Shown piece after piece: positions 278 through 60,679 of a stretch of DNA of 64,000 nucleotides. Position numbers and translations under genes: made by a program. The stretch's first letter is position 1. Every line of letters starts with the position of its first letter. The notes beneath the pieces are model-generated. The model searched no databases. It was given only the letters and a program-made list of their open reading frames with translations, and was not told where the DNA came from. Source of the stretch: Vulgatibacter incomptus (GTDB taxonomy: Bacteria; Myxococcota; Myxococcia; Myxococcales; Vulgatibacteraceae). The stretch is from the NCBI GenBank assembly GCA_040391605.1, contig JBEBXK010000008.1, forward strand, positions 46,635 to 110,634, read 5' to 3'.

Positions 278-390
278 GACCCCTGTGAAAGGAGCCCCTC
301 CGCTGGAGCGGAGCGACTCATGCAAGCCCGCGCGCTGCGGCGAGAGGGCTTCCTATCGTTTTCTCGCCTCCAACTCGCGAGAGTTCATGC
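278..390 (+). repeat. Degenerate copy of dispersed MITE/REP-like family 1
   Basis: CCTGTGAAAGGAG...CGCGCGCTGCGGCGAGAGGGCTT...TTCTCGCCTCCAACTCGCGAGAGTTC matches the consensus of the copy at 21199-21330. Confidence 0.45.
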
Positions 391-468
391 CTTCGCCACC
401 GGCTCCAGGCTGAACACTACCTCCGGAACCATGGGACGTCCAAAGATGGTCTGCGAGAGTCCAAGCCG

Positions 469-1140
469 TCAGCGGCGGCGGCCGCCGACCCGGTAGGAGA
501 GGTCGAGAGCCTGGGCGTGTTCGTCCAGGCGCCCGCGGTCGTCGCTGTCGAGGACCAGAGAGGAGGCGCATCCCGCGGACCTGCCCTCCGGCGCGCCTTC
601 GGGAAAGCGCACCTGCAGCGCGGAGCGCATCGACTCGGTGCCGCGGGCCAGGTCCAGGCCGCCTGCGGTCACGCCCAGGAGGAGGAGGTTGGTGGCGGGG
701 CCGCCGTCGGGGTGGGCCTGGTTCTCGGCGCGCACTTGCAGCAGCCTGCGGGCGGCGCTCTGCTGGGACGGACGCAGGGTCCCCAGCGCCGCGAAGAGCA
801 CCCGGACTGCCCGCTCGTCCACGACGCAGTGGTTGAGGACCTTTCGCTGCTCCAGCAGCAGGCAGAAGGCCTCGTGCAGGGGATCGTCCGGGAGGAATCC
901 GGCTCGATCCAGCTCGGCGGAGGCGGCGCGGACCAGCACCCGATTGGCGAAGCCCGCCCGCCGCCAGGGGCCCTCGCGGGAGCCGAAGACCGCGCGCAGG
1001 GTCCAGACGTCGTGGAGGATCCGCTCCCGCCTGCCGGCCAGATGAACCTCGAGCACGGCCAAGGCTCGCAGCGAGTCGGCCGGGTGGGGAAGGCTGGGCG
1101 GATCGGCGTCTTTCGACGGGGGGCGATTCGAAGGCAACAT
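469..1140 (-). CDS. Hypothetical protein
   Basis: C-terminal part of ORF 469..1557, from ATG 1140. Strong G/C third-position codon bias on this strand; divergent from the gene at 1279. No motif recognised. Confidence 0.5.
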   Translation of the reverse strand: MLPSNRPPSKDADPPSLPHPADSLRALAVLEVHLAGRRERILHDVWTLRAVFGSREGPWRRAGFANRVLVRAASAELDRAGFLPDDPLHEAFCLLLEQRKVLNHCVVDERAVRVLFAALGTLRPSQQSAARRLLQVRAENQAHPDGGPATNLLLLGVTAGGLDLARGTESMRSALQVRFPEGAPEGRSAGCASSLVLDSDDRGRLDEHAQALDLSYRVGGRRR

Positions 1141-1278
1141 GGCCCGCTTGGTAGCACAGCCCTCGCGGTTGGGATAGATCACGAGCCCCGCGCCGCAGCC
1201 CGCCGCCGCCGACCCGTCTTCGTGGGATCTTTCGGCAGGCCGGGCTCGGATGCAGCGTCGCAGGAGACGGATCGACGG

Positions 1279-3654: not shown

Positions 3655-4167
3655 TTGGATCATCGCGCGCATCGCGGCCCGACGCAAACACCCCGACGGG
3701 ACGCGTGGCTCCGATGGAGCTGCCTCGTCGTCACGCTGGGGGTGGGCGCGTGTACGCCCTCGTATTTCCAGCCCGACGAGGAGCGGGCCGGGATCCTCGT
3801 CGATTGGGGGCCGCAGCGGGATCGAGCCGCCCTCGAATCCCTCGTCAGCGCCTGTGAGTCTGCGGTGGGCTTCGACTTCTCCCGCGGTGCCGCTGCCAAA
3901 TTCGTCCGCGATCCGAACCAGCATTGCTCGCTCCCCGCGAACACCAAGGTCGCCGGCTGCTGGATCCCGCAATACGATCTGATCGTCCTGAAGCCCGCCG
4001 CCAGCCTGAGCCGGACCGCCCTCTGCCACGAGCTGCTGCACCGCCAGCTCTACGACCGCACCAACGATCCCGACTACGACCACCAGCGGGAGGAGTGGTC
4101 GAGGCTCTCGACCACCGCGGGGACGCCACCCCGAGCGGAGCCCGCCAACCCGAGCCAAAGCCAATGA
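3655..4167 (+). CDS. Small putative lipoprotein with HExxH zinc-peptidase-like motif
   Basis: In-frame TTG at 3655. Signal ends LGVGAC. C-terminal half has CHELLH and DYDH. Start codon uncertain. Confidence 0.55.
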   Translation: MDHRAHRGPTQTPRRDAWLRWSCLVVTLGVGACTPSYFQPDEERAGILVDWGPQRDRAALESLVSACESAVGFDFSRGAAAKFVRDPNQHCSLPANTKVAGCWIPQYDLIVLKPAASLSRTALCHELLHRQLYDRTNDPDYDHQREEWSRLSTTAGTPPRAEPANPSQSQ

Positions 4168-4350
4168 GAAGTCGAGCCCCGTGCAGGGCGGAAGCGGTCT
4201 CCTCATCCCCGCTGCACGCGACGGGCTCTCATTGACGATCTCTCGCCTCCGGCTGGGAGCCGGTGAGAGAATCACCGCCGTGCAAGGGCGGCAGCGATTC
4301 TCTCACCCGCGCTGCGCGCGCCGGGCTCTGGCTGGCGTTTTCTCGCCTCC
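4158..4350 (+). repeat. Two tandem copies of MITE/REP-like family 1
   Basis: Second copy has a perfect stem GTGAGAGAATC (4263-4273)/GATTCTCTCAC (4296-4306), then CGCGCTGCGCGCGCCGGGCTCT...TCTCGCCTCCGGCT. The first copy shares GGGCTCTC...TCTCGCCTCCGGCT. Confidence 0.7.
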
Positions 4351-4445
4351 GGCTCGGGTGTCTGCCACGTGACCCGGCGCGGGCGCCTGCGATAGAGTGC
4401 CCACCTCGATTGTTCACGAAGGAACACGAGAGTCCGGGGAGCGGG

Positions 4446-8966: not shown

Positions 8967-10391
8967 TCAGAAGGTGTATTCACCATTCACGTTGAGGACG
9001 CTGATCGACTGCTTGTAGGTGCCCGCCGCGTTGGGCTGCTTGGAGGGCGCCTCGAAGGGCTGGCTCTCCTCCACCGAGATCTCGCGCTGGGCGTAGAACA
9101 CCTGGGTGAAGGTGGCGGCGAAGGCGAGGGAGTGGCCGATCTCAAAGCGGCTGCCGATGGACGCCGTGGCCTTGTTCATGTCGTAGAGGGAGGGGTCCAG
9201 GGTCTTGGAGGGGATCGCGTTGCTGTCGTAGCCGGCGCCCAGGTAGACCTCGAACGGCGCAGAGATCCAGTAGGACGCGCCGGCCCTGACGCCGAAGGCG
9301 TCCTTCCACTGCCGGGGGATGTTCTGCACGATGTTGCTCGCGGAGCCCGGCTTGGCGGAGCCGTCGTCGTTCAGATCGCAGCGGGCGTCCTTGGGCTCGC
9401 GGCTCAGAAAGCATTGCTTCTGCAGCGTGCTCCAGCGGACGTATTCGCCGAAGAGGCGCAGCTCCCATTCGGGATCCGGCCGCCAGCGGGCGCCGAGGCG
9501 GTAGACGTCGGGCAGCCCCTGCACCAGCCGGATCTCCTGCTGGGATTCCTGGCCACCGAGGGAGACGTCCAGGGTCCCGTCCAGGTTGGAGTCACCAAAA
9601 CCCGGCCGGCTCTGGTACGAGAAGCCGAGCCAGAGGTCGTCGATGGGCTGCCAGATCACGCCGGCCGACGCGCCGAAGTCCCAGCCGGAGGCCTCGATCA
9701 GGCTGCGCCCCTCCTTCAGCGCCCCGTCGGCGGTGACGAGATCGTCGCTGCCGTCCACGTTCCGCGCCCGCACGGTATGCAGGACGTTGTTGATCAGGTT
9801 CAGCCCTGCGCCGAAGGAGAGGCGGGGGCCTTCGAACGTGTAGCTGCCGGCGAGGGTGAAGTAGAGCGAGGTGATCTCACCGTCCTCGGTGAACCACCGC
9901 TGCACACCGTCCTCGGCGCCGGGGTATTTCTTGCCGAGCTCATTGCCTTCGAAGTCCTTGTTCCTGCCCCAGACTGCGGTGCCGCCGAAGGGCACGTAGA
10001 AGGCTGCGCCGACCCCGAGGTTCTTCACGCCCAGATCCGAGACCACCGCGGCGAAGGGGGAGGAGACCAGGTTGGTCAGCTCGCCTCGGCCGGCGTTCGC
10101 GCCGATCGCCTCCTCTGGGGTCTGGCCCTCGGGGCTCGAGCCCAGGTGGCTGATGGCGCTGGCGGGCCGATCGTAGCTCGCGTGGCGGAGGGCGAAGGTG
10201 CCGTCGAGGTAGATCCGAGTACCACCCGTGAGGGAGAGGCCCGCGGGGTTGTAGTAGATCGCTGTCGGATTGGCTGTGGTGGGGTGTCCGTGCTCTCCGC
10301 CGAAGCGCGCGGCGAGGAAGCCGCTGGCGGCGGAAGGGCCAGCCAAGAAGATGGTCAACAAAGAAACGCCGGCTACAACGATCGGTCTCAC
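8967..10391 (-). CDS. OmpP1/FadL/TodX family outer-membrane transport protein
   Basis: Signal peptide, then ASGF...NPTAIYYNPAGL (FadL hatch motif). Amphipathic beta strands, C-terminal Phe. GGAGG SD before GTG. Confidence 0.9.
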   Translation of the reverse strand: MRPIVVAGVSLLTIFLAGPSAASGFLAARFGGEHGHPTTANPTAIYYNPAGLSLTGGTRIYLDGTFALRHASYDRPASAISHLGSSPEGQTPEEAIGANAGRGELTNLVSSPFAAVVSDLGVKNLGVGAAFYVPFGGTAVWGRNKDFEGNELGKKYPGAEDGVQRWFTEDGEITSLYFTLAGSYTFEGPRLSFGAGLNLINNVLHTVRARNVDGSDDLVTADGALKEGRSLIEASGWDFGASAGVIWQPIDDLWLGFSYQSRPGFGDSNLDGTLDVSLGGQESQQEIRLVQGLPDVYRLGARWRPDPEWELRLFGEYVRWSTLQKQCFLSREPKDARCDLNDDGSAKPGSASNIVQNIPRQWKDAFGVRAGASYWISAPFEVYLGAGYDSNAIPSKTLDPSLYDMNKATASIGSRFEIGHSLAFAATFTQVFYAQREISVEESQPFEAPSKQPNAAGTYKQSISVLNVNGEYTF

Positions 10392-11269: not shown

Positions 11270-14050
11270 TTACGCCTTGGAGGCCGAGGGCTTGGTGGCC
11301 TTCTTGCCCGCGGTCTTGGCCGACGCCGCCGTCTTTTTGGCGGGGGCCTTCTTCGCCGTGGTCGACGAGGCCTTCTTCACTGGGGCCTTCTTTGCCGTTG
11401 TCGACGAGGCCCTCTTGGCGGGGGCCTTCTTCGCCGGAGTCGACGAGGCCTTCTTGGCGGAGGCGGTCTTGCGCGCCGCCGGTCGCTTCTTCTTCCCTTC
11501 CGGCGCTGCGTCCAGGGCCACCACGGCCTGCTCCACGGTGAGGGACTGCGGATCGAAGGAGGCCTCCTTGCTCACGGTGGCCGTCTTCTCCCCATGCTTG
11601 ACGTAGAAGCCGTAGCGCCCGGAGTAGAGCTGGATCGGCTGGCCGTCCTTCGGATGCGCGCCCACCTGCCGCAGCGGCTCGGCCTGGCCGCGGCCCCGCC
11701 CCTTGGGGATCGCCAGGAGCTCGAGGGCCCGGGGCAGCTCCACGGCGAGGACGTCGTCCTCCTTCTTCAGGGAGCGAAAGTCGCCGTCGTGAACGACGTA
11801 GGGGCCGAAGCGGCCGAGGCCTGCCCGAACGTCCTTGCCGGTGTCGGGGTGCGGGCCCAATAGCCGAGGAAGCTCCAGGATCCGCAGCGCCAGGGTCAGA
11901 TCCACGTCCTGGAGCTGGATCCCCGGGGGGAGGCTGGCGCGCTTGGGCTTCACGTCGTCGGCGGCGTCACCGAGCTGAACGTACGGGCCATAGCTCCCCG
12001 TCTTCAGGTAGACGGGCTTGCCCGAGGCCGGGTCTGCGCCGATCCCCTGCTCCCGGCGCTCGTACTTCTCCAGGATCTCGTAGACCCGATCGCTCGTCAG
12101 ATCGCCAGGCGCCACCTCGTCCGGGATCGAGGCCTTGCGTGGATCCGAGCCGGGCTCCTGCAGCTCCAGATACGGTCCGAACTTGCCGACGTGGATCTCC
12201 ACCCCGGGCAGATCGGAAGAGAGCTTCACCAGCTTGGCGTCCTTGGGATCGATCTGCTGGGCCTGCTGATCGATCCGGGTCTTCAGCCCGTGATCGCCCA
12301 GGTAGAACTGCTGCAGATAGGGCTTGGCCTCCAACTCCCCCTCGGCGATGGCGTCGAGGGAGCGCTCCATCTGGCTGGTGAAGCCCAGGTCCACCAGATC
12401 CGGAAAGTGGTTGGCCAGGAGATCCGAGACCACGAAGGCGGTGAAGGTCGGCACGAGTTGGTTGCCCTGCTTCACCACGTAGCCCCGATCGATGATCGTC
12501 CCCACGATGGTGGCGAAGGTCGACGGCCTGCCGATCCCCTCCTTCTCCATCAGCTGGATCAGCGAGGCCTCGGTGTAGCGGGGCGGCGGTTTGGTCTCAT
12601 GCCCCTCGGCCGCCAGCTTGTCGAGGTCGACGCGGTCGCCGGGCTGCAGCGCTGGAAGCAACCGCTCACGCTGATCGAGGGCGCCCTGGGCGTCGTCCGA
12701 TCCCTCCACATAGGCGCGCAGGAAGCCGGGGAAGACGATGCGGAGGCCGCTCGCGGCGAAGGTCGCGTCGCCGGCCTCGATCCGCACCGCGATCTGGGTC
12801 TGCCTGGCGTCCGCCATCTGCGTGGCCAGGGTGCGCATCCAGATCAGCTCGTAGAGATCGTGATCGCGGCCCACCAGGCCGGTGTCCCGCGGCGCGGTGA
12901 AGTCGGCCGACGGGCGGATGGCCTCGTGGGCCTCCTGGGCACCCTTGGTGCTGGTCTTGTACTGGCGGATCCCCGGCGCGACGTACTCGGCGCCGAAGCG
13001 GGTCTCCACACAGCGGCGCGCCGCCTGGATCGCCTCGTTGGAGAGGTTCACCGAGTCGGTACGCATATAGGTGATGAGGCCGCGCTCGTAGAGGGATTGC
13101 GCCACCCGCATCGTCTCCTGAGCGCTCATCCCCAGCTTGCGGTTGGCCTCCTGCTGCATGGTCGAGGTGATCAGCGGCGGCGGGGGCTTGCGGGTGACCG
13201 GCTTCTCCTCCACCGACTTCACCACGAAGGGCAGGGGCTCCAGGCGCTTGCGCAGCTCGTTGGCCTTGGACTCGTCCAGGTGGAGCAGCTTCTCGCGGGA
13301 CTCCTTCAGCGCGCCTGTCTTCTCGTCGAAGTCCTTGCCGCTGGCCAGGCGGGCGTCGCCCACCTGGATCAGCCTGGCATCGAAGGCTCCGCCCTTGGAG
13401 ACGGTGGCCAGCAGATCCCAGAAGCTCGCCTTGCGGAACGCCATCCGCTCTCGCTCGCGGCGGACGATGACCTCCACTGCCACGGATTGGACCCTGCCCG
13501 CGGAGAGGCCGAAGGCGATCTTGGACCAGAGCAGCGGCGAGAGGCCGTAGCCCACCAGCCGATCCAGGATCCGGCGGGTCTCCTGGGCGCGGACGAGGCG
13601 ATCGTCCAGATCCCGGGTCCGATCCAACGCCCGATGGATCGCGTCCTTGGTGATCTCGTGGAAGACCAGGCGCTCGAAGGGCACCTTGGGCTTGAGCACC
13701 TCCAGCAGATGCCAGCTGATCGATTCTCCCTCGCGATCTTCGTCGGTAGCGAGCAGGACGCGGTCGGCGTCCTTGACAAGATCTTTGAGCTCCCGGACCA
13801 CCTTGGTCTTCTTCTTGGGCACCACGTAGAGAGGCTCGAAGCCATTGTCCACGTTGACCCCGAGGCGGGCCCAGGGCTCCTTCTTCACCTTCTCGGGGAT
13901 CTCGGCAGCGCTCGTGGGCAGATCGCGGACATGGCCCATGCAGGCCTCGACCACGTACCCCTTCGGCAGGAACTTTCGGATCGTCTTCGCCTTGGTCGGC
14001 GACTCGACGATCACGAGGGTCCGGCTGTTTCCGTCCCGCGACATCTCCAC
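11270..14050 (-). CDS. topA: DNA topoisomerase I (type IA) with C-terminal repeats and Lys/Ala-rich tail
   Basis: LVIVESPTKAKTI, TDEDREGE, SAGRVQS, catalytic region LITYMRTDS and AHEAIRP. C-terminal G(K/R)(F/Y)GPYV repeats. Start could be GTG 14050 or ATG 14044. Confidence 0.97.
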   Translation of the reverse strand: MEMSRDGNSRTLVIVESPTKAKTIRKFLPKGYVVEACMGHVRDLPTSAAEIPEKVKKEPWARLGVNVDNGFEPLYVVPKKKTKVVRELKDLVKDADRVLLATDEDREGESISWHLLEVLKPKVPFERLVFHEITKDAIHRALDRTRDLDDRLVRAQETRRILDRLVGYGLSPLLWSKIAFGLSAGRVQSVAVEVIVRRERERMAFRKASFWDLLATVSKGGAFDARLIQVGDARLASGKDFDEKTGALKESREKLLHLDESKANELRKRLEPLPFVVKSVEEKPVTRKPPPPLITSTMQQEANRKLGMSAQETMRVAQSLYERGLITYMRTDSVNLSNEAIQAARRCVETRFGAEYVAPGIRQYKTSTKGAQEAHEAIRPSADFTAPRDTGLVGRDHDLYELIWMRTLATQMADARQTQIAVRIEAGDATFAASGLRIVFPGFLRAYVEGSDDAQGALDQRERLLPALQPGDRVDLDKLAAEGHETKPPPRYTEASLIQLMEKEGIGRPSTFATIVGTIIDRGYVVKQGNQLVPTFTAFVVSDLLANHFPDLVDLGFTSQMERSLDAIAEGELEAKPYLQQFYLGDHGLKTRIDQQAQQIDPKDAKLVKLSSDLPGVEIHVGKFGPYLELQEPGSDPRKASIPDEVAPGDLTSDRVYEILEKYERREQGIGADPASGKPVYLKTGSYGPYVQLGDAADDVKPKRASLPPGIQLQDVDLTLALRILELPRLLGPHPDTGKDVRAGLGRFGPYVVHDGDFRSLKKEDDVLAVELPRALELLAIPKGRGRGQAEPLRQVGAHPKDGQPIQLYSGRYGFYVKHGEKTATVSKEASFDPQSLTVEQAVVALDAAPEGKKKRPAARKTASAKKASSTPAKKAPAKRASSTTAKKAPVKKASSTTAKKAPAKKTAASAKTAGKKATKPSASKA
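11343..11459 (-). repeat. Three tandem 39-bp coding repeats in the TopA tail (xK(K/R)ASST(T/P)AKKAP)
   Basis: Units 11343-11381, 11382-11420 and 11421-11459 are near-identical (ggggccttctt...gtcgacgaggcc). Confidence 0.85.
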
Positions 14051-21173: not shown

Positions 21174-21198
21174 AGGTTCGCGATCTCTTCACGAAGCC

Positions 21199-21330
21199 TC
21201 AGAGCCTGTGAAGGAATCGCCCCGGCGCGAGGCGGGAGCGATTCCTTCACGCGCGCTGCGCGCGCAGGGCTCTTTTGCGTTTGCTCGCCTTCGGCTTCGC
21301 GAAAGTTCGTGAAAAATTCACGAACTCTCA
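21199..21330 (+). mobile_element. Full-length copy of MITE/REP-like family 1 (126 bp plus TCA flanks)
   Basis: TCA-GAGCCTGTGAA...TTCACGAACTC-TCA: imperfect TIRs and 3-bp direct flanks. Perfect 13-bp stem 21208-21220/21238-21250 and 10-bp stem AGTTCGTGAA/TTCACGAACT. Confidence 0.75.
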
Positions 21331-23064: not shown

Positions 23065-23175
23065 GGGCTCTCTCCTGCTTCGAGCGCGAGCATTCACCGC
23101 CTGCGCGCACGTCGGTTGCGAATTCCCGGCCAACCTATCTCAAAATTCTCAAAGCGAGAAGGAGGTCGACGCATC

Positions 23176-38920: not shown

Positions 38921-39057
38921 TGCGATTCCCACGAGATCCCCTTCCCGATTTCTGTATCAGCATCAGCGATGGTGCTCCAGGAATCTGCGCCTCGCCAAGA
39001 CCTCGAGCGAGCCCCGCATGCACCATCCGACTCTCTCGGGGGCCGCCCGATCGGCCT

Positions 39058-39265
39058 GCGAGCTGGAGGCGAGCGATCGCTGGAGAGAGCGCCTCGCGGG
39101 CAGCGCGAGCGAGAGAATCGACGCTGGCTTGCGCGGAGGCATTCTCTCACGGGGCTTTTGAGGCGAGACGGAGGCGAGTGAACCCTGGAGAGCACACCCT
39201 TTCATGCGGAAGACGAGGTGAAGAATCGCTCCCGCCCATGCGGGGGTGATTCGTTCACGGCCTCT
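39058..39265 (-). repeat. Two tandem copies of MITE/REP-like family 1 (reverse orientation) in the egtD/egtC divergent gap
   Basis: Reverse complement AGAGGCCGTGAACGAATC...GCGATTCTTCAC...TCGCCTCCG, then GTGAGAGAAT...ATTCTCTCGCTCGCGCTG...TCGCTCGCCTCCAGCTCGC. Confidence 0.6.
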
Positions 39266-39281
39266 GGGCTATCTTGGCCCC

Positions 39282-40103: not shown

Positions 40104-40209
40104 GCTGGTCGTCGCAGGCCGTGTGGAGCGTCGCGGGGGAAGGCGCATCTGGCCATCTCCGAGCTGGATCGATGAACTCCTCGTCGGCACCCGCGGGGAG
40201 CGTCGCTCC

Positions 40210-45416: not shown

Positions 45417-45572
45417 GAGCCTGTAGAGGAATCGCTCTCACCCCAGGTGGGGGCGATTCTTCACGCGCCCGGTGCGCCAGGGCTCTTTCGCCTCCCGCTC
45501 GTAGAGCCTGTGAGAACGCGATCTCATTCTGGGTGGGACGGATTTTTACCCGTGCGGTGCGCAGGGACGGAG
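45417..45572 (+). repeat. Two tandem copies of MITE/REP-like family 1 between convergent genes
   Basis: GAGCCTGTAGAGGAATCGC...GCGATTCTTCACGCGC...AGGGCTCTTTCGCCTCCCGCTCG, then AGAGCCTGTGAGAA...GATTTTTACCCGTGCGGTGCGC. Confidence 0.65.
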
Positions 45573-48133: not shown

Positions 48134-49671
48134 AGGGCGCCGTCATCCGGACGGATGAGCTGACGAGAGACGAGGAGGTGCGCTGCGACGTCTGCGTCAT
48201 CGGCTCCGGGGCCGGCGGCGCCGTGCTCGCCGCGGGGCTGGCCGAGCGCGGCCTGCGGGTGGTGATGTTGGAAGAAGGGGGCCATCACACCAAGAGTGAG
48301 TTCGACATGCGGGAGGGGACGGCCTATCCGATGCTCTACCAGGAGCGCGGCATGCGGGCGACGGCAGATCTCGCGATCACGATCCTCCAGGGCCGCTCGG
48401 TGGGGGGCTCCACGACCATCAACTGGACCACCTGCTTTCGCACGCCGGACTCGATCTTCGAACATTGGCGGCGGGTCCACGGCGTCGAGGGTCTGGATGC
48501 CGCCTCGCTCACCCCGCACTTCGAAGCGGTGGAGGAGCGCCTCTCGATCCACGAGTGGCCGCTGGCCTTGGCCAACGCCAACAACCGCGTGCTCTGGGAT
48601 GGCTGCGAGAAGTTGGGCTGGGAGGCGGCCCCTCTGCGGCGCAACGTGAAGAGCTGTGTAAACAGCGGATACTGCGGCATGGGCTGCCCCATCGACGCCA
48701 AGCAGTCCACCCTGGTGACCTACGTCCCCGACGCCCTCGAGGCAGGGCTCCAGCTCTACGTGCATTGCCGGGCGGAGCGGCTGGAGGTCGCCGGGGCTCG
48801 GGTCCTGGCGATCCACGCCGTGGCCCTGGATCCGATCAGCGATCGGCCGACGGGGCGGCGGCTGATCATCCGACCGAAGGTGGCGGTCTCCAGCGCCGGC
48901 GCCATCAACGGCCCGGCGCTCCTCCTCCGCTCCGGACTCGACGCCAACGGCAGGGTGGGCCGGCGCACCTTCCTCCACCCCGTCGTGGCCATGGCGGCCT
49001 TCTTCGACGAGCCGGTGCGCGCGTTCTACGGCGCGCCACAGTCGGTGGGCTCCCACCACTTCGCCTCTCGCGGCGCCAACAAGATCGGCTTCTTCTTGGA
49101 GACGCCGCCCATCCATCCGATGCTCGCCGCCACCGCCTTCGGCGGCTTCGGTCGCACGCAGCAGGACTTCCTCCGGAGGCTGCCGTACCTCGGCGTGCTC
49201 ATCGCGCTGTCGATCGACGGCCTGCTGCCGGGGGACGAGGGCGGGCGGGTCTCGCTGCGGCGGGATGGGCGAATCCGGGTGGATTATCCCGTGGGCGAGT
49301 CCCTGGTCGAGTCGTTCCGCGCCTCGAGCCTCGCGATGGCCAGGATCCAGCTCGCCGCCGGCGCCAAGGAGGTGAGCTCCCTCCATCCTGAGCCGGTGAT
49401 CTTGCGCTCGGAGGCCGATCTCCCGCGGCTGGAGGCAGCCCCCTTCGGCTCGTTGCAACACCCGATCTTCACCGCCCATCAGATGGGTGGCTGCGCGATG
49501 GGATCCGATCCCGCCACCAGCGTCGTCGACTCCACCTTGCGGCATCATCAGATCCACAACCTCTTCGTCGTCGACGGCTCGGTCTTCCCCACTTCGCTCG
49601 GCGTGAACCCCAGTGAGACCATCTACGCCCTGGCCCATTGGGCGCGGGATCGAGTCGCCGCCGCCGTCTGA
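48130..49671 (+). CDS. GMC family oxidoreductase
   Basis: VIGSGAGG, VMLEEG, GRSVGGSTTIN, CVNSGYCGMGC, AHQMGGCAMG and LFVVDGSVFPTSLGVNP. Confidence 0.93.
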   Translation: MKGAVIRTDELTRDEEVRCDVCVIGSGAGGAVLAAGLAERGLRVVMLEEGGHHTKSEFDMREGTAYPMLYQERGMRATADLAITILQGRSVGGSTTINWTTCFRTPDSIFEHWRRVHGVEGLDAASLTPHFEAVEERLSIHEWPLALANANNRVLWDGCEKLGWEAAPLRRNVKSCVNSGYCGMGCPIDAKQSTLVTYVPDALEAGLQLYVHCRAERLEVAGARVLAIHAVALDPISDRPTGRRLIIRPKVAVSSAGAINGPALLLRSGLDANGRVGRRTFLHPVVAMAAFFDEPVRAFYGAPQSVGSHHFASRGANKIGFFLETPPIHPMLAATAFGGFGRTQQDFLRRLPYLGVLIALSIDGLLPGDEGGRVSLRRDGRIRVDYPVGESLVESFRASSLAMARIQLAAGAKEVSSLHPEPVILRSEADLPRLEAAPFGSLQHPIFTAHQMGGCAMGSDPATSVVDSTLRHHQIHNLFVVDGSVFPTSLGVNPSETIYALAHWARDRVAAAV

Positions 49672-49795
49672 GTTCGTGAAGAGTCGAACGCTGCGATCGA
49701 ACGCAGAATGAGCCCGCCGGGTGTCGCCACCTGCTGGCTGCAGCCGCCATGGCTCGGTGAGCGTGCAGCGAGTGGACGATCGGGGAAGGCTCTCG
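49669..49795 (-). repeat. Highly degenerate copy of MITE/REP-like family 1 between convergent genes
   Basis: TGA-GTTCGTGAA directly at the GMC stop codon (compare 60594). GGCTCTC near the far end. Internal match is weak. Confidence 0.3.
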
Positions 49796-50869: not shown

Positions 50870-50978
50870 TCAGAGCCTGTGAAAAAACCGCCATCATCGA
50901 GGCGGAGGGGCGGTTTTCTCACGCGCGCTTCGCGCTATGGCGCTGCCTGTGGGCAAGTAAGCCACTTACGCACCATCA
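50870..50978 (+). repeat. Copy of MITE/REP-like family 1 flanked by TCA...TCA
   Basis: TCA-GAGCCTGTGAAAAAACCGCC...GGCGGTTTTCTCACGCGCGCTTCGCGC. Right hairpin GTAAG/CTTAC, ending at the TCA stop of the DCC gene. Confidence 0.6.
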
Positions 50979-51555: not shown

Positions 51556-51930
51556 TCAGCTCTCCTTTGGGCGGACGATCCGTTTGCCGATCACGCGGAC
51601 CCCCTCCGCCCGCAGCAGCTTCGCCTGCTCTCCCGCCACGGCGTCTGCGAGCGTGTGGTCTGCACGCGCTACCCGCCACCAGGGCAGCCCCTTCGAATGG
51701 GCCAGGGCGTGGGCCACGGCTCGTGCGGCCCTGGGGCTCCCCGCCCGCCTGGCCACATCGCCATAGGAGAGGACGATGCCGCGGGGGATGCCACGGACCA
51801 CCTCTGCCACCGCATCCGTGAAGGACTCGTCGTCGTGGATGGCGGGCAAGATTCCCTTTGCTGGTGCTCCCGGCGGGGGAGATACCTTGCGCTTGCTCGC
51901 CTGCGACTCGCGATGGCGCGGCGGGCTCAC
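51556..51930 (-). CDS. Alkyltransferase-like (ATL/MGMT family) DNA-binding protein
   Basis: IPRGIVLSYGDVA, ARAVAHAL, PWWRV (Trp in place of the catalytic Cys of PCHRV) and LLRAEGV. Confidence 0.85.
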   Translation of the reverse strand: MSPPRHRESQASKRKVSPPPGAPAKGILPAIHDDESFTDAVAEVVRGIPRGIVLSYGDVARRAGSPRAARAVAHALAHSKGLPWWRVARADHTLADAVAGEQAKLLRAEGVRVIGKRIVRPKES

Positions 51931-53072: not shown

Positions 53073-53116
53073 GGCGCGCATCTTGCCCGATCCGGGGGCT
53101 CCGCGGTGCAGCGATT

Positions 53117-53200
53117 GGGAGAACTCCCCTCGCGTTCCCCGTGGAGGCGCTACGGCTCTTTCTGGCGTTCGCTCGCCTCCTGCTCGCAGAGCCGCGATTC
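53117..53200 (+). repeat. 3' half of MITE/REP-like family 1
   Basis: GCGCTACGGCTCTTTCTGGCGTTCGCTCGCCTCCTGCTCGCAGAG matches the internal consensus. Confidence 0.5.
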
Positions 53201-53774: not shown

Positions 53775-53793
53775 TTCATGGCGGAGGGGGCAG

Positions 53794-54050: not shown

Positions 54051-55034
54051 GTGGCCCATCCCGCTCCCGATCTCGCTCGACTGCTCGATGACCTGCGCCG
54101 CACCCGCGCGCTGGTGACACCCCAGGAGCTCGCCCACCGCCTGCCTCCGATGGCGCCCACGGGGCTGCCGCCGCTGGATCGGCTGCTGGGCGGGGGGCTC
54201 CCGGAGGGGCGAGTGGTGGAGCTCGGGGAAGGGAAGGGGGCCTTCGCCTCCGCCGTGGCGTTGCAGATCCTGGCGCGGTTCACCTCGGAGGGGAGGCCGG
54301 CGGCCCTGGTGGATCGGGCGGACGCCTTCGATCCCCGCTGCGCCGCGGAGGCCGGCGTCGATCTCGAGCGGACGCTCTGGTGCAGGCCGTCGTCTTCGAG
54401 GGAGGCGATCCGGGCGGCGGATGCGCTCCTGGCCTCCGGCGCCTTCTCCCTGGTGATCCTCGACCTGGCGCGATGGCCTGCGCGATGGCCTGCCGGCGGG
54501 CCCCGGATGCCGAGCGGGCGCAGGCGGGAGCCGCCGATCTCCCAGGGGGCCTGGCTGCGCCTGGCGCGGGATGCGGAGGCGGCCCGGGCCAGCCTCCTCG
54601 TGGTGGGGGACGCGGTGGCGGCCGGGGTGTCGGCGGCCTCGCTCCGGCTCCTGCGCAGCAGGGCCTGCTTTCTGGGGCAGGGCCCGGGGCGCACCTTCGA
54701 GGGCCTCGAGATCACCGTCGGCCTGGAGCGCAACCGGCTGGGGCTGCCGCCGGGGGAGGCGGTCCTGGCCCTGCGCTCGCCCTCGCATTTTCCCTGGGCG
54801 GTCCGGGAGCCGGGGCCGGGCCAGGCACGCTCGGATGCGTGGGCTCCGTCACCGGAGGCGTGGCGCTGGTCTCTGCAGATGGATGCTTCGCAGATAGACG
54901 CCCCATCGGCTCAGAGTGAGAGGTCCATCGGCGTCCCTCCGAGCGTGAGGCGGGTAGACGCTCCATCGCCTCGGGATGGAGCGCGCGATGGGCGCGTCGC
55001 CAGCGGCTCGAAAGGGAGGGCGTCGTGGGCCTGA
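54051..55034 (+). CDS. imuA: ImuA (RecA-like mutasome accessory protein)
   Basis: TGLPPLDRLLGGGLPEG, ALVDRADAFDP...AGVDL and SGAFSLVILD. RecA-like but without a Walker A motif; overlaps imuB. Confidence 0.85.
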   Translation: MAHPAPDLARLLDDLRRTRALVTPQELAHRLPPMAPTGLPPLDRLLGGGLPEGRVVELGEGKGAFASAVALQILARFTSEGRPAALVDRADAFDPRCAAEAGVDLERTLWCRPSSSREAIRAADALLASGAFSLVILDLARWPARWPAGGPRMPSGRRREPPISQGAWLRLARDAEAARASLLVVGDAVAAGVSAASLRLLRSRACFLGQGPGRTFEGLEITVGLERNRLGLPPGEAVLALRSPSHFPWAVREPGPGQARSDAWAPSPEAWRWSLQMDASQIDAPSAQSERSIGVPPSVRRVDAPSPRDGARDGRVASGSKGRASWA

Positions 55035-56533
55035 TCGGCTGTCTCTACGTACATGATCTGCCGCTGCAGGCGCTGCTGCGGGTGGAGCCGGGGCTGGCCG
55101 GCGCCGCGGTGGCGGTGGCGGTGGGCGAGGGAGCCCGGGCGCGGATCCTCTGCGTCTCGGTGCCGGCGTACACCCAGGGTGTCAAGCCCGGCATCTCCGT
55201 CGGCGACGCGCTCTCGCTGGCGCCCCAGCTCGTCTTGCGGTGGGTCCCGCCGGAGATGGTGGAGGCTGCCCGGGCCGCGGTGCTGGACGCCGCCGCGAGC
55301 GTCTCACCCAGAGTGGAGGAGCTGCGCCCCGGAGTGGCGTTGGTGGACGCGGCAGGTCTGCAGAAGCTCCATGGGAGCGAGCGGGGGGTGGCGTCGGCCC
55401 TGGTGGTGGCGGCGGAGCGGCTGGGCCTGGAGGGCCGGGCGGCGGTGGCGTCCGGCAAGAAGCTCGCGACCATCGCCGCCATGCGAGGGAGCGGGATCGA
55501 GGTGATCGCCAGGGGGAGGGAGCGGGCGTTCCTGGCGCCGCTGCCCCTGGCGGCGCTGGGCGCGAGCCCCAAGCTGGCGGAGACCCTGGGCCGCTGGGGG
55601 ATCGGCGCCGCCGGTGAGCTGGCGGGCCTGCCCGCGGATGGAATCGGCGCCCGCCTGGGCGAGGAGGGCGTGAGGCTCCACCGCCTCGCCTGCGGTGTGG
55701 ACGAGGAGCCGCTGGCGCCGCGACATCCGCCGGAGATCTTCGAGGAGGGAGCGGACTTCGACTACGAGCTCAGCGCCATCGAGGGGCTGATCTTCGTGCT
55801 GCGGCCGGCGCTGGAGCGCCTCGTCGATCGCCTCGACTGCCACTCGATGGCCTGCGGCGGGATCACCCTGCGCCTGCTGCTCGATCCCGCCGGGGAGGCG
55901 ATCCTCCCGGTGGAGCTGGCGGCTCCCACCCGCGAGGTCTCCGCGCTGATCTCGCTCTGCCGCTCGGTGATCGAGCGGCGCCCGCCAGGGGCTGCGGTGA
56001 GGGGGCTGCGGGTGGCGGCCACGCCGGCTGCGGCGCGGCACGAGCAGCTCCGCCTCTTCGGCAGGCCGACCGTGGCGCCGGAGAAGCTCGCCACCGCCCT
56101 GGCCAAGGTGGCCGCCATCGTCGGCGACGATCGAATGGGGCGTCCGATCCTCTCGGACTCGCATCTCGCCGACTCCCATGCGATGGGCCGCTACGACCCG
56201 CCTCCACCGCCGGACGAGCTCCGCGCTGCCGTGCGCGAGGGCGAAGCCCGGTACGAGACTCACGACCCTGGGGGGCTGGCGGCGCTGCGCCTCTTCCGCC
56301 CGCCCCTCGAGGCCGAGGTGAAGGAGGGCAGCGAGGGGCCTCGGATGCTGCGGGCGGGGGCGATCGCCGGATGGGTCGTCTCCTGCGCCGGCCCCTGGCG
56401 CCTGGACGTGGGCTGGCATGAGAAGGCCGTATGCCGGGACGCCTTCGACGTCGAGCTCTCCGATGGCGCCGTCTACCGGCTGGCGCAAGACTCATCCACC
56501 GGCGCCTGGACCCTCCTCGGCCGGTACGACTGA
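55025..56533 (+). CDS. imuB: ImuB (inactive Y-family polymerase scaffold)
   Basis: Y-family N-terminus lacking catalytic acidic residues (CLYVHDLPLQAL), APLPLAAL, LGRWGI..AGELA and C-terminal GPWR...RDAFDVELSDG. Confidence 0.88.
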   Translation: MGLIGCLYVHDLPLQALLRVEPGLAGAAVAVAVGEGARARILCVSVPAYTQGVKPGISVGDALSLAPQLVLRWVPPEMVEAARAAVLDAAASVSPRVEELRPGVALVDAAGLQKLHGSERGVASALVVAAERLGLEGRAAVASGKKLATIAAMRGSGIEVIARGRERAFLAPLPLAALGASPKLAETLGRWGIGAAGELAGLPADGIGARLGEEGVRLHRLACGVDEEPLAPRHPPEIFEEGADFDYELSAIEGLIFVLRPALERLVDRLDCHSMACGGITLRLLLDPAGEAILPVELAAPTREVSALISLCRSVIERRPPGAAVRGLRVAATPAAARHEQLRLFGRPTVAPEKLATALAKVAAIVGDDRMGRPILSDSHLADSHAMGRYDPPPPPDELRAAVREGEARYETHDPGGLAALRLFRPPLEAEVKEGSEGPRMLRAGAIAGWVVSCAGPWRLDVGWHEKAVCRDAFDVELSDGAVYRLAQDSSTGAWTLLGRYD

Positions 56534-56777
56534 AAGAGCCGGTGGCCTGGCCCCGTCGAGCGTGCAGTCCAGGCCGGCCGTTCCGAGTCGTGAAGAACGG
56601 CACCGGCAGGCTGTCCTCCGACGCGGTGATGGAGCGGACCACATCCGGGGCGCGGCGGCCACGCTTCGAGAGACGGTGCAGCGGCGATGTCGGACCTCCG
56701 TGCGAGGATGGATCGGTCAAGGTACTCAGAGGGGTCAGGCCATGCATTCGGAAGCGATCGGTAGTATTCAGGAGGGG

Positions 56778-57338
56778 ATGTCACGAGAGGACGCATACGC
56801 TCGGCTGATGGAGCTGCCCGAGAACAAGGTCGGCGAGATCATCGCCGGCGAGCTGATCGTCTCGCCTCGGCCGGCTTCACCCCACACCGTCGCGGCGGGG
56901 ACGCTCGGGATGGATCTGGGCACGCCGTTTCAGCGAGGCCGGGGCGGCCCCGGAGGCTGGTGGATCCTCCCTGAGCCGGAGCTGCACCTGGGCGAGGACG
57001 TGCTGGTCCCCGATCTGGCGGGCTGGCGGGTGGAGCGGATGCCGACTGTTCCGAATGTGGCGGCGTTCACCTTGGCACCGGATTGGCTCTGCGAGGTGCT
57101 CTCGCCTTCTACCTCCTCGTTGGATCGGATTCGAAAGATGCCGATCTACGCTCGAGCCGGCGTGCGCGACGCCTGGCTCATCGATCCGTTGGCGCGCTTT
57201 CTCGAGAGCTACCAACTGCAGGACGGCAAGTGGCTTCGTCTTGGCGCCTGGAGCGAGGACGACCGCCCGCGTGTAGAGCCCTTCGCGGAGATCGAGCTCG
57301 AGCTGCAGGCGCTTTGGCTGCCACGCACCGAGCGATAG
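56778..57338 (+). CDS. Uma2 (DUF820) family PD-(D/E)XK endonuclease-like protein
   Basis: EIIAGELIVSPRP, VLVPDLAGW, PDWLCEVLSPST, DRIRKMPIYARAGV and WLIDP. Alternative start ATG 56742. Confidence 0.92.
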   Translation: MSREDAYARLMELPENKVGEIIAGELIVSPRPASPHTVAAGTLGMDLGTPFQRGRGGPGGWWILPEPELHLGEDVLVPDLAGWRVERMPTVPNVAAFTLAPDWLCEVLSPSTSSLDRIRKMPIYARAGVRDAWLIDPLARFLESYQLQDGKWLRLGAWSEDDRPRVEPFAEIELELQALWLPRTER

Positions 57339-57440
57339 CGCCTCCCTTTCAATCTCTGAAACGATCGCGTCAGGTCGACGCGATGGCGGCGCTGCCGGAC
57401 AGGCAAAAGCCGTACGCTCGGGAGGGGCGGGGCCGATGCC

Positions 57441-57470
57441 TTGACGGACTGAACGGATGTCTCTATGAAT
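57441..57470 (+). promoter_or_regulatory. Second SOS promoter (LexA box between -35 and -10) dedicated to dnaE2
   Basis: TTGACG-17 bp-TATGAA(T) containing CTGAACGGATGT. First 20 nt are 18/20 identical to the imuA promoter. Confidence 0.75.
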
Positions 57471-57497
57471 CGGGGCGAGTCCACTGCTCCTCCGAAG

Positions 57498-60400
57498 ATG
57501 CTTCCTGCCCGCCAACGCTCGACGAAGAGGCCGACCCGCTACGTGGAGCTGCGGGCGCGCAGCGCGTTCTCCTTCCTGCGGGGGGCGTCGCAGCCGGAGG
57601 ATCTGGCGGCCCGGGCGGCGTCGCTCGGCTATGGGGCGATGGCGTGTGGCGACCACGGCGGCCTCTATGGTTCGCCTCGATTCCATGCGGCGGCGAAGGA
57701 GGCTGGGCTGCGGGCGATCGTGGCTGCGGATGTGGACGTGGCGGAGGTGGGGAGCCTGCGCCTGCTGGTGGAGGACGAGGGGGGCTATCGCAACCTCTGC
57801 CGGCTGCTGACGCGCTCGCATGCCACGCGGGTGAAGGGGACGCACGTCGTCTCGCTCGAGGACGTGGCGGCGCATGGCCAGGGACTGGTGGCGCTGCTGG
57901 GCGCCTGCCGCGACGCGAAGGCGGCGCAAGACGTGGTGCGCAAGCTGGGCACGGAGCGGGTGGCGGCGGAGGTGCAGCGGCATCTGGATCCGGCGGACGA
58001 GCGCCGGAACCGCGCGATGGTGGAGTTGGCCCGACGCCATGGGCTTCCCCTGGTGGCCACCGGCGACGTGCGACATGCGACGCCGCGGGAGCGGCGGGTG
58101 CTGGACGTGCTCGCCTGTATCCGCGAAGGCGTCCCCCTGGACGCGGCGGGGACCCTGCTGGCGCGCAACGCGGATCGGCACATCCATCCCCCCGAGGAGA
58201 TGGAGCGCCGCTTCGCGGATCTGCCTCGGGCCATCGACGGCACGGTCGAGCTCGCGGCGCGCTGCGCCTTCACCCTGGACTCGCTGCCCTACCGCTTCCC
58301 GGACTTTCCGGTGGAGCCGGGAGACAGCCAGCAGGCCCTCCTCACGAGGCTCACCTTCGAGGGGGCGCGGCGCCGCTACGGGGCGAGGCTGGAGGGGAAG
58401 GCGCGGGCGCAGATCGAGCACGAGCTGGCGTTGATCGGCAAGCTCCAACTCGCGGGCTACTTCCTCATCGTCTGGGATCTGGTGCGCTTCTGCAGGGAGA
58501 ACGACATCCTCACCCAGGGCCGGGGCTCGGCCGCCAACTCCGCGGTCTGTTACGCGCTGGGGATCACCGCCGTCGATTCGGTGGGGATGGAGCTGCTCTT
58601 CGAGCGCTTCCTCTCGGAGGAGGGGGGCGAGTGGCCGGACATCGATCTCGATCTCCCTTCGGGCGACAAGCGGGAGCGGGTGATCCAATACGTGTATCAG
58701 CGCTACGGTCGCAGCGGCGCCGCCATGTGCGCGGAGGTGATCACGTACCGGGGGCGCTCGGCGGTGCGGGAGGTGGGCAAGGTGCTGGGGCTCGCGCCGG
58801 ACGCGATCGATCGCATGGCCCGACACGTCACGCGCTTCGAGTACGTGGACTCCACCGAGGATCCGGCGGAGCGGATCGAGCAGGCGGGGCTGCGCCCGGA
58901 CGACGAGAGGCTGCGCCTGCTGGTGGAGCTCTGCGGCGAGCTGCGCTCCTTGCCCCGACACCTCTCGCAGCACTCGGGGGGGATGATCATCGCCAAGGGG
59001 AGGCTGGACGAGATCGTGCCGCTGGAGCCGGCGGCGATGCCGGATCGCACCGTCCTTCAATGGGACAAGGACGACGTCGAGCAGATGCAGCTGATCAAGA
59101 TCGATCTCCTCGGCCTGGGGATGATGGCGGCCCTGGAGGACTCGGTGGCGATCCTCGCCGAGCGCGGCACGCCCATCGATCTCTCGCAGCTCCGAGCCGA
59201 CGATCCGAAGGTCTACGACGCGGCCTGCGCCGCCGACACGGTGGGGGTCTTCCAGATCGAGAGCCGCGCCCAGATGGCGACCCTGCCGCGGATGCGACCG
59301 CGTCATTTCTACGATCTGGTGGTGGAGGTGGGGCTGATCCGGCCGGGGCCGATCGTGGGGAAGATGGTGAACCCCTACCTCGCCAGGCGGGCAGGGCGGC
59401 AGGAGGTGAGCTACCCGCATCCATCCCTGGAGCCGGTGCTGAAGCGGACCCTGGGGATCCCGCTCTTCCAGGAGCAGCTCATGCGGGTCGCCATGATAGC
59501 ATCAGGATTCACCGGAAGTGAGGCGCAGGAGCTGCGCAAGGCGATGAGCCACAAGCGCTCCCGCGAGCGGATGCAGCGCTTCGAGGAGAGGCTCCGCGTC
59601 GGCATGGATCGAAGGGGCTTCTCACCCCAGGCCCGGGACGAGGTGCTCCTGGGGATCAAGTCGTTCGCCGAATACGGATTCCCCGAGAGCCACGCGGCGA
59701 GCTTCGCCCTGCTCGTATATGCGAGCCTGTGGATCAAGGTGCATCATCCGGCGGTCTTCCTCGCCGCGCTGCTCAACAACCAGCCGATGGGTTTCTACGC
59801 GCCGGCGACCCTGGTGAAGGACGCGCAACGCCACGGCGTCCACGTGCGCACGCCCTGTGTGATCCACTCGGAGGCCCGGGCCCGGGTGATGGGCGATCGT
59901 GAGGTGCGCCTGGGCTTGCGTGGTGTGGTGGGGATGAGCGCCGCCGCCGCGGAGCGGATCGTCGAGGCGCGGCGGCTGCGCCCCTTTTGCGACGTGGGCG
60001 ACGTCTGCCTGCGCGCGAGCCTCGACCCGCGGCGGGCGGAGCTCCTGGCGGAGGCCGGGGCCTTCGCCGCTTTGGGCGTGAGCAGGCGCCAGGCCCTCTG
60101 GGAGGTCCGCGCCGCCCTCACCGCCGGCGGGCCCCTGGCGCCGCCACCGCGGGGGCAGGCGTCGCCGCTCCCCGAGCTCAGCGCGCTGCAGCGCACCCTG
60201 GCGGACTACGCCTCCACCGGCCTCACCGTGGGGCCCCATCTGGTCGCGGCGCTGCGGGCGGAGCTGGACGAGCTGGGGGTCACGCCTTCGGGGGCGGTGA
60301 GCGCCGCGCGCAACGGGCGCTGGATCAAGATCGCCGGCCAAGTGATCGTCAGGCAGCGCCCCGGCACCGCCAAGGGGATGGTCTTCGTCACGGTGGAGGA

Positions 60401-60596
60401 TGAGACCGGCTTCGCCAACGCGGTGATCGATCCCGAGACCTTCCAGGCGCATCGCACCTTGTTGCTCACCAGCCCGCTCCTCCTGATCGAGGGGCCGCTC
60501 CAGAACGTCGACGGCGTCGCCACGGTGAAGGGCCGCGCGTTCCACGCGCTGGAGGGGCCGAGCGAGGAGCTGCCGCCCTCTCGCGACTTTCACTGA
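57498..60596 (+). CDS. dnaE2: Error-prone DNA polymerase DnaE2 (ImuC)
   Basis: YVELRARSAFSFLRGAS PHP domain, GRGSAANSAVCY, WPDIDLD, PRHLSQHSGG, YGFPESHAASF, OB fold and terminal SRDFH. ATG 57465 overlaps the -10 box, so 57498 is preferred. Confidence 0.97.
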   Translation: MLPARQRSTKRPTRYVELRARSAFSFLRGASQPEDLAARAASLGYGAMACGDHGGLYGSPRFHAAAKEAGLRAIVAADVDVAEVGSLRLLVEDEGGYRNLCRLLTRSHATRVKGTHVVSLEDVAAHGQGLVALLGACRDAKAAQDVVRKLGTERVAAEVQRHLDPADERRNRAMVELARRHGLPLVATGDVRHATPRERRVLDVLACIREGVPLDAAGTLLARNADRHIHPPEEMERRFADLPRAIDGTVELAARCAFTLDSLPYRFPDFPVEPGDSQQALLTRLTFEGARRRYGARLEGKARAQIEHELALIGKLQLAGYFLIVWDLVRFCRENDILTQGRGSAANSAVCYALGITAVDSVGMELLFERFLSEEGGEWPDIDLDLPSGDKRERVIQYVYQRYGRSGAAMCAEVITYRGRSAVREVGKVLGLAPDAIDRMARHVTRFEYVDSTEDPAERIEQAGLRPDDERLRLLVELCGELRSLPRHLSQHSGGMIIAKGRLDEIVPLEPAAMPDRTVLQWDKDDVEQMQLIKIDLLGLGMMAALEDSVAILAERGTPIDLSQLRADDPKVYDAACAADTVGVFQIESRAQMATLPRMRPRHFYDLVVEVGLIRPGPIVGKMVNPYLARRAGRQEVSYPHPSLEPVLKRTLGIPLFQEQLMRVAMIASGFTGSEAQELRKAMSHKRSRERMQRFEERLRVGMDRRGFSPQARDEVLLGIKSFAEYGFPESHAASFALLVYASLWIKVHHPAVFLAALLNNQPMGFYAPATLVKDAQRHGVHVRTPCVIHSEARARVMGDREVRLGLRGVVGMSAAAAERIVEARRLRPFCDVGDVCLRASLDPRRAELLAEAGAFAALGVSRRQALWEVRAALTAGGPLAPPPRGQASPLPELSALQRTLADYASTGLTVGPHLVAALRAELDELGVTPSGAVSAARNGRWIKIAGQVIVRQRPGTAKGMVFVTVEDETGFANAVIDPETFQAHRTLLLTSPLLLIEGPLQNVDGVATVKGRAFHALEGPSEELPPSRDFH

Positions 60597-60679
60597 AAGT
60601 TCGTGAAGAAACACGAACTCTGCGAGCCGAAGAGGAGCGAGCGCAGGGGAGGGCCCGGCGCGCATCGCGCGAGCGATCA
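60594..60679 (-). repeat. 3' half of MITE/REP-like family 1 between convergent stop codons
   Basis: TGA(stop of dnaE2)-AAGTTCGTGAAGAAACACGAACTC-TGCGAGCCGAAG...GGGCCCGGCGCGCATCGCGCG is the reverse of the 21250-21330 region. Confidence 0.65.

Follow-up and report, generated by a model that had tools for sequence, protein, structure and literature searches.

The Correia or NEMIS elements of Neisseria are very dense intergenic miniature inverted-repeat transposable elements (MITEs) of ~100–150 bp that duplicate TA at the target, have 26-bp inverted repeats, occur in many truncated or variant forms, carry documented promoter and RNase III sites, and have no active host transposase identified. The repetitive extragenic palindromes (REP) of Enterobacteria and Pseudomonas and the BIME and REPIN arrangements that they form are likewise dense, sometimes clustered, and have compensatory stems, but they depend on a REP-associated tyrosine transposase (RAYT) and leave no target duplication. 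Tourist MITEs (PIF/Harbinger) make a 3-bp TNA-type duplication, and their transposase superfamily is related to IS5. Among insertion sequences (ISs), ends that begin GAG are typical of the IS1031 subgroup of the IS5 family in the ISfinder classification. This subgroup prefers TNA targets and generates exclusively a 3-bp direct repeat, and the inverted repeat of one member, ISLrh, is GAACCTGTCTAGTATCT, which begins GAACCTGT (PMC12016507). Here we describe a repeat family in a 64,000-nt stretch of DNA from the Vulgatibacter clade of Myxococcota (contig JBEBXK010000008.1, positions 46,635 to 110,634; the whole stretch is hereafter called the window). Its members are very probably copies of a 126-bp noncoding MITE that inserts at TCA/TGA triplets, often at a stop codon. 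The family has a 3-bp duplication where Correia elements have TA and 26-bp inverted repeats, and it differs from the REP group in this duplication and in having no RAYT in the window. Tourist MITEs are functional analogues in targeting TNA, but they have eukaryotic hosts and no sequence relationship to the family, the chemistry alone being analogous.

The family is a well-known kind of selfish DNA and not a new kind of system. It is apparently the first MITE family to be documented in the Vulgatibacter clade, none being described in Rfam, in the plasmid collection or in the literature searched. An initial annotation of the window, made from the letters alone, had called it uncatalogued, which holds as far as these three sources show.

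The repeat family in the window

Profile and covariance-model (CM) scans recognise 15 solid copies, spread over 14 of the intergenic gaps in the window, which has a G+C content of 69%. On convergence, an iterated nhmmer profile seeded with positions 21198–21332 had a core of ~97 nt and gave 21 matches at E ≤ 1e-3; these represent 14 loci, because the internal palindrome was also matched on the opposite strand. Each of ten dinucleotide-shuffled windows gave no match. A CM built from 19 copies and run with filters off recovered 15 distinct copies at E ≤ 0.0015, with matches starting at 279, 4158, 4257, 21202, 24775(-), 28654(-), 30474, 34919, 39041(-), 39158(-), 45417, 50873, 51812, 53089 and 60597(-). 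A 23-base composite pattern was matched three times, against 0.00 expected. The repeat is real, and chance similarity as its origin is rejected. The dense family announced in the initial annotation was thus recovered, and its consensus, read by eye, agreed nearly base for base with the computed one.

The density is ~1 copy per 4.3 kb, with copies on both strands. Every copy is intergenic, and ~14 of roughly 40 gaps (about a third) are filled; two seeming overlaps with genes were artefacts of over-long GTG start calls. The gaps that hold copies comprise four convergent, six co-directional and three divergent ones, with no bias in orientation or gene context.

The window copies have a mean pairwise identity of 59% (44–79%), and the right hairpin is missing in 11 of the 15. 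Two head-to-tail pairs occur, with a period of ~100 bp. Where a right end is retained (four copies or relics), the right flank is always TCA; the left flanks read TCA in four cases, TCG and CCA in two each and TTA in one. The copies are mostly old, immobile relics, the sole intact one lying at 21202–21327. For this copy the initial annotation had reported imperfect terminal inverted repeats beginning GAG and TCA on both sides, and a full-length match to the profile hidden Markov model (HMM), together with the flanks as read, bears this out. Most of the other loci that it listed were recovered as well, with some corrections. The weak locus at ~33690 had no support in any scan, the copy at 51812–51910 had been missed, and the locus at 49669 is only a ~40-nt right-end relic. 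Four tandem pairs had been proposed, and those at 4158 and 39058 stand; the second members at 34919 and 45417 are no more than weak fragments (CM E = 0.18 and nhmmer E = 1.6, respectively).

Unit, target duplication and empty sites

The unit is best defined outside the window. A metagenome collection scanned with a specific pattern yielded 40 loci, 18 of them in the family and all of these from two assemblies of one Vulgatibacter sp. metagenome-assembled genome (MAG); the other 22 were chance matches within genes of unrelated GC-rich contigs. The MAG copies are young and full length, with 93% mutual identity (86–98%), and the similarity among 15 near-identical copies ends sharply on both sides, which sets the unit at 126 bp. 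Its order is GAGCCTGTGAATCAATCGC, long hairpin, GC palindrome, GGGCTC, a 30-nt spacer and GAGTTCGTGAAT-AAA-TTCACGAACTC, and it has no coding capacity. The termini are imperfect inverted repeats, GAGcctGTGAAT and GAGttcGTGAAT, that begin GAG; the left end GAGCCTGTGAAT agrees with the reverse complement of the right end GAGTTCGTGAAT at 9 of 12 and at 11 of 19 positions.

Identical 3-nt flanks are found in 12 of 16 distinct full-length copies (TCA/TCA in 11, CCA/CCA in one), where TCA makes up 0.74% of background trinucleotides. The flanks are direct (TCA..TCA) and not inverted (TCA..TGA), and in one copy both sides have changed together; they are therefore a target-site duplication and lie outside the element. 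Across the family the target is TCA/TGA in nearly all copies, and the duplication is always 3 bp.

An exact empty site comes from a close relative of the MAG, L161, the ClpA of which is 94% identical to that of the MAG. In L161 the ferrochelatase stop is followed by a 51-bp gap reading ...GGCGC TGA GCCTG, with a single TGA. At the same point the MAG locus L119 reads ...GGCGC TGA [family B] TGA [main family, reversed] TGA GCAGC, with a gap of 389 bp. This HemH–SOD gap of L119 holds two successive insertions, each with a TGA duplication. A second empty allele is seen in a soil-metatranscriptome contig (X4) from a 90–97% relative, which joins 20109 to 20499 and so is without the same 389 bp. The gap that is filled in L119 is also empty in the window. 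The duplication and the empty site uphold the MITE interpretation put forward in the initial annotation. The second element at this site, family B, is itself MITE-like (L119 20110–20340; also in L123, L130, L131 and L141). It is ~145 bp long, with near-perfect inverted repeats CAGGGTCTCCAGAAAT...ATTTCTGGAGACCCTG and flanks TGA/TCA, and it has no copy in the window. It repeatedly abuts the main family with a common triplet, as if the flanking TCA were itself a preferred target. Another MAG locus, L137, has the 11-mer AAGCCGGTGAA eight times at 9389–9587, at a spacing of 18 or 54 bp, apparently a tandem repeat within coding sequence that has nothing to do with the MITE.

The presence of the family is specific to certain lineages. 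No other recorded protein exceeds 83% identity to the ClpA of the window, and the nearest are those of Vulgatibacter incomptus and Vulgatibacter sp. MAGs (82% for the copy-bearing MAG), and gene order is conserved between the window and its Vulgatibacter relatives. The CorC–ClpS gap measures 241 bp in the window against 64, 43 and 43 bp in L118, L119 and L161; the arginase–amidohydrolase gap 252 bp against 85 bp in L161; and the KAS–CobW gap 279 bp against 109–197 bp in five relatives, where conserved flanks bracket the insertion point. For the window copies the comparison is one of gap lengths and gives no single-triplet boundaries, because the relatives are too distant (ClpA 82%). The family was not found in the syntenic regions (12–22 kb) of four relatives, V. 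incomptus among them. A third carrier lineage, GCA_041687135.1, has a contig that breaks within a copy beginning TCA|GAGCGTGTGAAGGAATCGG, and the spread is patchy, over three lineages of the Vulgatibacter clade.

The genome from which the window comes holds many more copies. The one public run that contains the window sequence, labelled as an insect metagenome, has 73 contig pieces at least 80% identical to the intact copy, 17 of them at least 95%. The summed depth climbs to ~500 at the element where the flanks have 16, and contigs break off within it. The family is thus much larger than the window implies, with young members elsewhere in the source genome. Contigs terminate within the element in three independent assemblies.

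Mechanism, relatives and alternative readings

The element is most likely moved by a DDE transposase from a gene elsewhere, which would bind to the ends, cut the element out and place it at a TNA triplet, in nearly all cases TCA or TGA, with duplication of the 3 bp. Copies would then pile up at gene ends and in intergenic gaps, because TGA frequently serves as a stop and because insertions within genes would be purged. In several cases the duplicated triplet doubles as the stop codon of the neighbouring gene. The unit itself looks composite. Positions 1–75 resemble a mini-MITE of gammaproteobacterial type (GAGCCTGTGAA..hairpin..TTCAC AGGCTC), the right arm of which would have been split by the GC palindrome, and the 30-nt spacer and the bare inverted-repeat pair (GAGTTCGTGAAT-AAA-TTCACGAACTC) would supply the working right end. 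In the lineage of the window, most copies are by now old and immobile, with the right hairpin lost.

The initial annotation had found no transposase or RAYT in the window, in agreement with a Pfam search of 40 open reading frames (ORFs), all of which were ordinary chromosomal genes or had no Pfam match. It had also suggested derivation from the IS1031 subgroup, and descent from such an element fits every feature that we examined. The TNA target and the 3-bp direct duplication agree, and the family terminus GAGCCTGT matches the ISLrh repeat, the single published repeat compared, in 7 of the first 8 bases and in 9 of 17 overall. Members of the subgroup, such as IS1031 and ISLrh, are ~850–950 bp long as against 126 bp without a transposase gene here; the family has short imperfect inverted repeats, and its interior consists of two nested palindromic modules and not of a deleted IS body. 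No element that carries both a transposase gene and these ends turned up, so that the link is not proven. A candidate IS left end, L163, reads TGA|GAGCCTGTGAAAGAATCGC and is the same as the window consensus over 19 nt, 17 of which were fixed by the search pattern; an ORF starts ~85 nt in. Eukaryotic primers were all that a literature search with the terminal sequence brought up.

Elements with the same terminus are present in other phyla. A first collection scan used the pattern GAGCCTGTGAANNNNNCGCC, which is loose and gave mostly chance matches, and the kin loci L007, L095, L108 and L111 are among the matches listed. L111, from a Pseudomonadales MAG (Gammaproteobacteria), is a 57-bp element with perfect 18-nt inverted repeats and TGA/TGA flanks, and L095, also from Gammaproteobacteria, is an element of ~215 bp with the same flanks. 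L095 led to a 163-bp element with a TGA duplication (L165, 4002–4170) on the Azotobacter chroococcum plasmid pAcX50e (NZ_CP010420.1, ~20826–20994). With this element and one TGA removed, the reading frame of a thiolase-like gene is restored (...DELSGLSAPELGG...); in the plasmid record the interrupted gene is annotated merely as a short 'hypothetical protein'. These mini-MITEs share with the Vulgatibacter family the terminus GAG(C/G)CTGTGAA, the direct TGA/TGA flanks and the absence of coding sequence. They differ in having long perfect inverted repeats (18–20 nt) and unrelated interiors, whereas the Vulgatibacter family has a different, weaker right end (GAGTTCGTGAAT) from a separate hairpin module. 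Termini of the form TGA|GAGCCTGTGAA... also stand right after stop codons in L007 1–65 (Myxococcota MAG CTSoil_098), where the contig ends 65 nt into the element, and in L108 (Methylomirabilota MAG), where the first 20 nt are the same as in the intact copy of the window; both may be further relatives or IS ends.

Matches to the first pattern in a 'Candidatus Hydrogenedentota' MAG (SKQZ01) were set aside as an unrelated repeat that has 15 bases in common with the pattern by chance. This repeat is highly conserved, at least 160 nt long and present on at least 13 contigs (L002, L017, L022, L027, L035, L051, L053, L056, L071, L081, L087, L088 and L105), several times at or near the contig end, and probably represents an IS or a MITE belonging to that genome.

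The intact copy folds into a three-way junction plus a terminal hairpin, with z = -7.2 as DNA and -5.8 as RNA. In an alignment of 19 copies with an explicit four-helix structure, 87.5% of the cells are paired, against 26–44% when the partners are slid, and 14 pairs have changed on both sides compared with 7.0 ± 1.7 in shuffles, none of 500 of which reached this number. The stems have thus been kept by compensatory change. Our reading is that the helices are putative base-paired arms of inverted repeats to which a transposase would bind, and not an RNA. The same figures, with the very stable RNA fold and the frequent position of copies right after stop codons, could be taken to mean that the family is a structured RNA (a small RNA, cis-regulatory element or terminator) in which the three-way junction is what is selected and mobility is secondary or absent. 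We regard this as quite improbable, since the copies lie in both orientations to neighbouring genes and in all three gap types, and since presence or absence at orthologous sites together with a 3-bp duplication indicates insertion and not vertical descent. The palindromes are, moreover, equally explained as paired transposase-binding arms, and no Rfam family matched the window at its gathering score, the best sub-threshold match being ftsZ-DE at 24.1 bits against a cut-off of 72.2. An intrinsic terminator in particular was rejected: the hairpins are followed, as read in the sequence, by GCGCGC or CTC-TCA and not by a T-run, and they occur in either orientation to upstream genes. A related possibility, rather unlikely but the least so of those weighed here, is that the 75–100-nt three-way-junction core now serves, through co-option, as a structured element of DNA or RNA, for example a stabiliser of transcript 3´ ends, an insulator or a nucleoid-protein site. 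Such roles have been proposed for REP and BIME. This reading is raised because stems are kept at ~59% identity, a third of the gaps are filled, and the core makes up the whole stop-to-stop spacer in places.

The initial annotation had also used the label 'REP-like', which we drop. Spread of extragenic palindromes by a RAYT, an IS200/IS605-like Y1 transposase acting via single-stranded hairpins, would account for repeats that are intergenic, dense, strongly palindromic, sometimes adjacent and equipped with compensatory stems. It is nevertheless barely credible here, as REPs leave neither the specific 3-bp direct duplication nor the single-triplet empty sites that we see, the unit is 126 bp with distinct ends and not a palindrome of 20–40 nt, and no Y1_Tnp or RAYT gene is present in the window or in any relative neighbourhood examined. 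A third view concerns the short copies (~75–100 nt, without the right hairpin), which might be a separate modular repeat of BOX or BIME type that spreads by recombination or slippage and was captured by the 126-bp MITE. The end points of 11 of the 15 window copies, close to model position 75 or 97–103, the two head-to-tail pairs of ~100-bp period, and a diverged core with CGCG microhomology flanks within a family-B element would suit this view. Yet most short copies retain the left GAGCC and a TCA-like left flank, right-hairpin stubs persist in 279–390, 35050–35111 and 53108–53196, all four copies with a right end have TCA on the right flank, and an identity of 59% agrees with old copies from which a perfect palindrome, prone to deletion, has been lost. 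We consider a separate modular repeat unlikely, if less so than the structured RNA.

The TNA-targeting MITE, which we prefer, has several observations to contend with. Exact empty sites were found for the MAG lineage only, the relatives of the window being too distant. No autonomous element with the ends of the family was found in the window, in 265 kb of DNA from the clade that was searched for solo or paired inverted repeats, in the plasmid collection (blastn with the full element, the L163 left end and the Azotobacter terminus) or in scans of the viral collection, where the matches were phage genes. The sequence of L163 ends after 109 nt, and the source run is without it. The inverted repeats are short and imperfect (9/12, 11/19), and the internal hairpins are kept paired by compensatory change, which is not required of a purely neutral relic. 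The loss of the right end in 11 of 15 window copies and the two head-to-tail pairs are not obviously predicted by random decay. Finally, the diverged core at L119 20131–20243 lies without terminal repeats inside a family-B element, where it replaces 4 nt between CGCG microhomology flanks and not at a TNA triplet, so that at least one copy arrived otherwise than by TNA transposition.

Individual copies and significance

The intact copy (plus strand, 21202–21327) lies between convergent genes and matches the HMM from 1 to 126 (E = 8e-26; CM 123 bits). It runs from the left terminal inverted repeat GAGCCTGTGAAG through the long hairpin, GC palindrome, GGGCTC and spacer to the right hairpin with the end TTCACGAACTC. 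Direct reading gives its target-site duplication as TCA at 21199–21201 on the left and TCA at 21328–21330 on the right, the latter being the TGA stop codon of a minus-strand Gly/Cys-rich ORF (21328–23133). The right hairpin is retained in two further copies, both on the minus strand. One is near-full (24772–24891; CM 69.9 bits), with its right hairpin at 24772–24803, a long hairpin whose 3´ arm has a deletion, and flanks TTA and TCA in element orientation, and it occupies the CorC–ClpS gap. The other comprises the right two-thirds (60597–60676, model 41–125; full-length HMM E = 1.9e-10, CM 52.4 bits) with the right hairpin intact, and makes up the whole 80-bp spacer between the TGA stop of a DnaE2-like gene (60594–60596) and the stop of a convergent thioesterase gene (TCA, 60677–60679). 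The DnaE2-like gene, for a second Pol III alpha subunit, follows an ImuB-like gene of the IMS family within 55025–60596, with the MITE relic right after its stop; ImuB with DnaE2 is the usual arrangement of the SOS mutagenesis cassette. A probable, tentative right-end relic on the minus strand (49670–49705, GAGTTCGTGAA...CGAAC..CTGCGA..TCGAACGC) has the exact 11-mer GAGTTCGTGAA at 49670, falls below the HMM and CM thresholds, and shares 2 nt with the TGA stop of a GMC oxidoreductase gene.

The head-to-tail pairs consist of core copies in divergent gaps. On the plus strand, 4158–4256 (nhmmer E = 3.6e-13, CM E = 1.4e-7; 100-bp direct repeat D7) is followed by 4257–4356 (model 1–98, without the right terminal hairpin; nhmmer E = 6.8e-20, CM 85.9 bits), between GSDH and a TPR-CHAT gene. 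On the minus strand, the upstream copy of the pair, 39158–39264 (left flank CCA; nhmmer E = 3.3e-16, CM 51.8 bits), stops 14 nt short of the real ATG (MCRLLG) of a GATase gene, and the downstream one lies at 39056–39152 (left flank TCA; nhmmer E = 1.7e-15, CM 68 bits), between EgtD-like and EgtC-like genes. These belong to an ergothioneine-type set (37892–41502) of an EgtD-like histidine methyltransferase on the minus strand and an EgtC-like amidotransferase and EgtB-like FGE/DinB protein on the plus strand, and the tandem MITE pair fills the divergent promoter gap of this set.

Two copies comprise only the left 75 nt, with left flank TCA. The one on the minus strand (28659–28732; nhmmer E = 2.7e-13, CM E = 5e-8) has the terminal inverted repeat, long hairpin, GC palindrome and GGCTC and lies between MaoC and KAS, and the one on the plus strand (50873–50948; nhmmer E = 1.8e-10, CM E = 9e-7) lies between Zn-ADH and DCC1-like genes. 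The remaining copies with an assigned strand are all on the plus strand. A core copy (34919–35020, model 1–103, left flank TCG; nhmmer E = 3.3e-17, CM 83 bits) in the arginase–amidohydrolase gap is followed by a weak partial second one, recognised mainly by eye (35050–35111, CM match to 35127; nhmmer and CM both E = 0.18), which has the 3´ half with a collapsed right hairpin and ends ...TTCTCA. The copy at 45417–45501 has an internal deletion (nhmmer E = 5.5e-12, CM 63.5 bits) and lies between convergent genes, 8 bp past the stop of a He_PIG/CARDB gene; a weak second fragment follows at 45503–45564 (nhmmer E = 1.6). Degenerate copies are found at 279–390 (model ~4–109, with a right-hairpin stub only, GAGAGTTCATG; nhmmer E = 2.6e-12, CM 44.1 bits, E = 4e-8), 78 bp past the 3´ end of the minus-strand ORF 469–1557, and at 30474–30564 (core, left flank CCA; nhmmer E = 2e-10, CM E = 2.4e-8), in the divergent KAS–CobW gap. 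The copy at 51812–51910 is strongly degenerate (nhmmer E = 1.3e-11, CM E = 0.0015) and lies 16 bp from the 3´ end of an RlmL-like gene, and that at 53108–53196 has the 3´ half only (model ~34–109; nhmmer E = 1.1e-5, CM E = 5.9e-6). Elsewhere in the window, three 39-bp tandem repeats (11324–11470, 80% alike) at the 3´ end of a minus-strand topoisomerase I gene suggest a repetitive C-terminal tail.

In conclusion, the family leaves the understanding of MITE mechanism unchanged and is of modest interest beyond annotation and the natural history of transposons. The profile and the CM can be used for masking and annotating the repeats, and the insertions as strain-level markers. About one in three intergenic regions of the window is shaped by the family, which in some cases provides a stop codon or lies against one, and which also visibly breaks short-read assemblies. 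Co-option of the core, if true, would amount to genome-wide domestication of a MITE in the window's lineage. The shared terminus and the TGA duplication in Gammaproteobacteria point to a transposase lineage that is widespread, probably IS1031-like and accompanied by many non-autonomous passengers that lack annotation.

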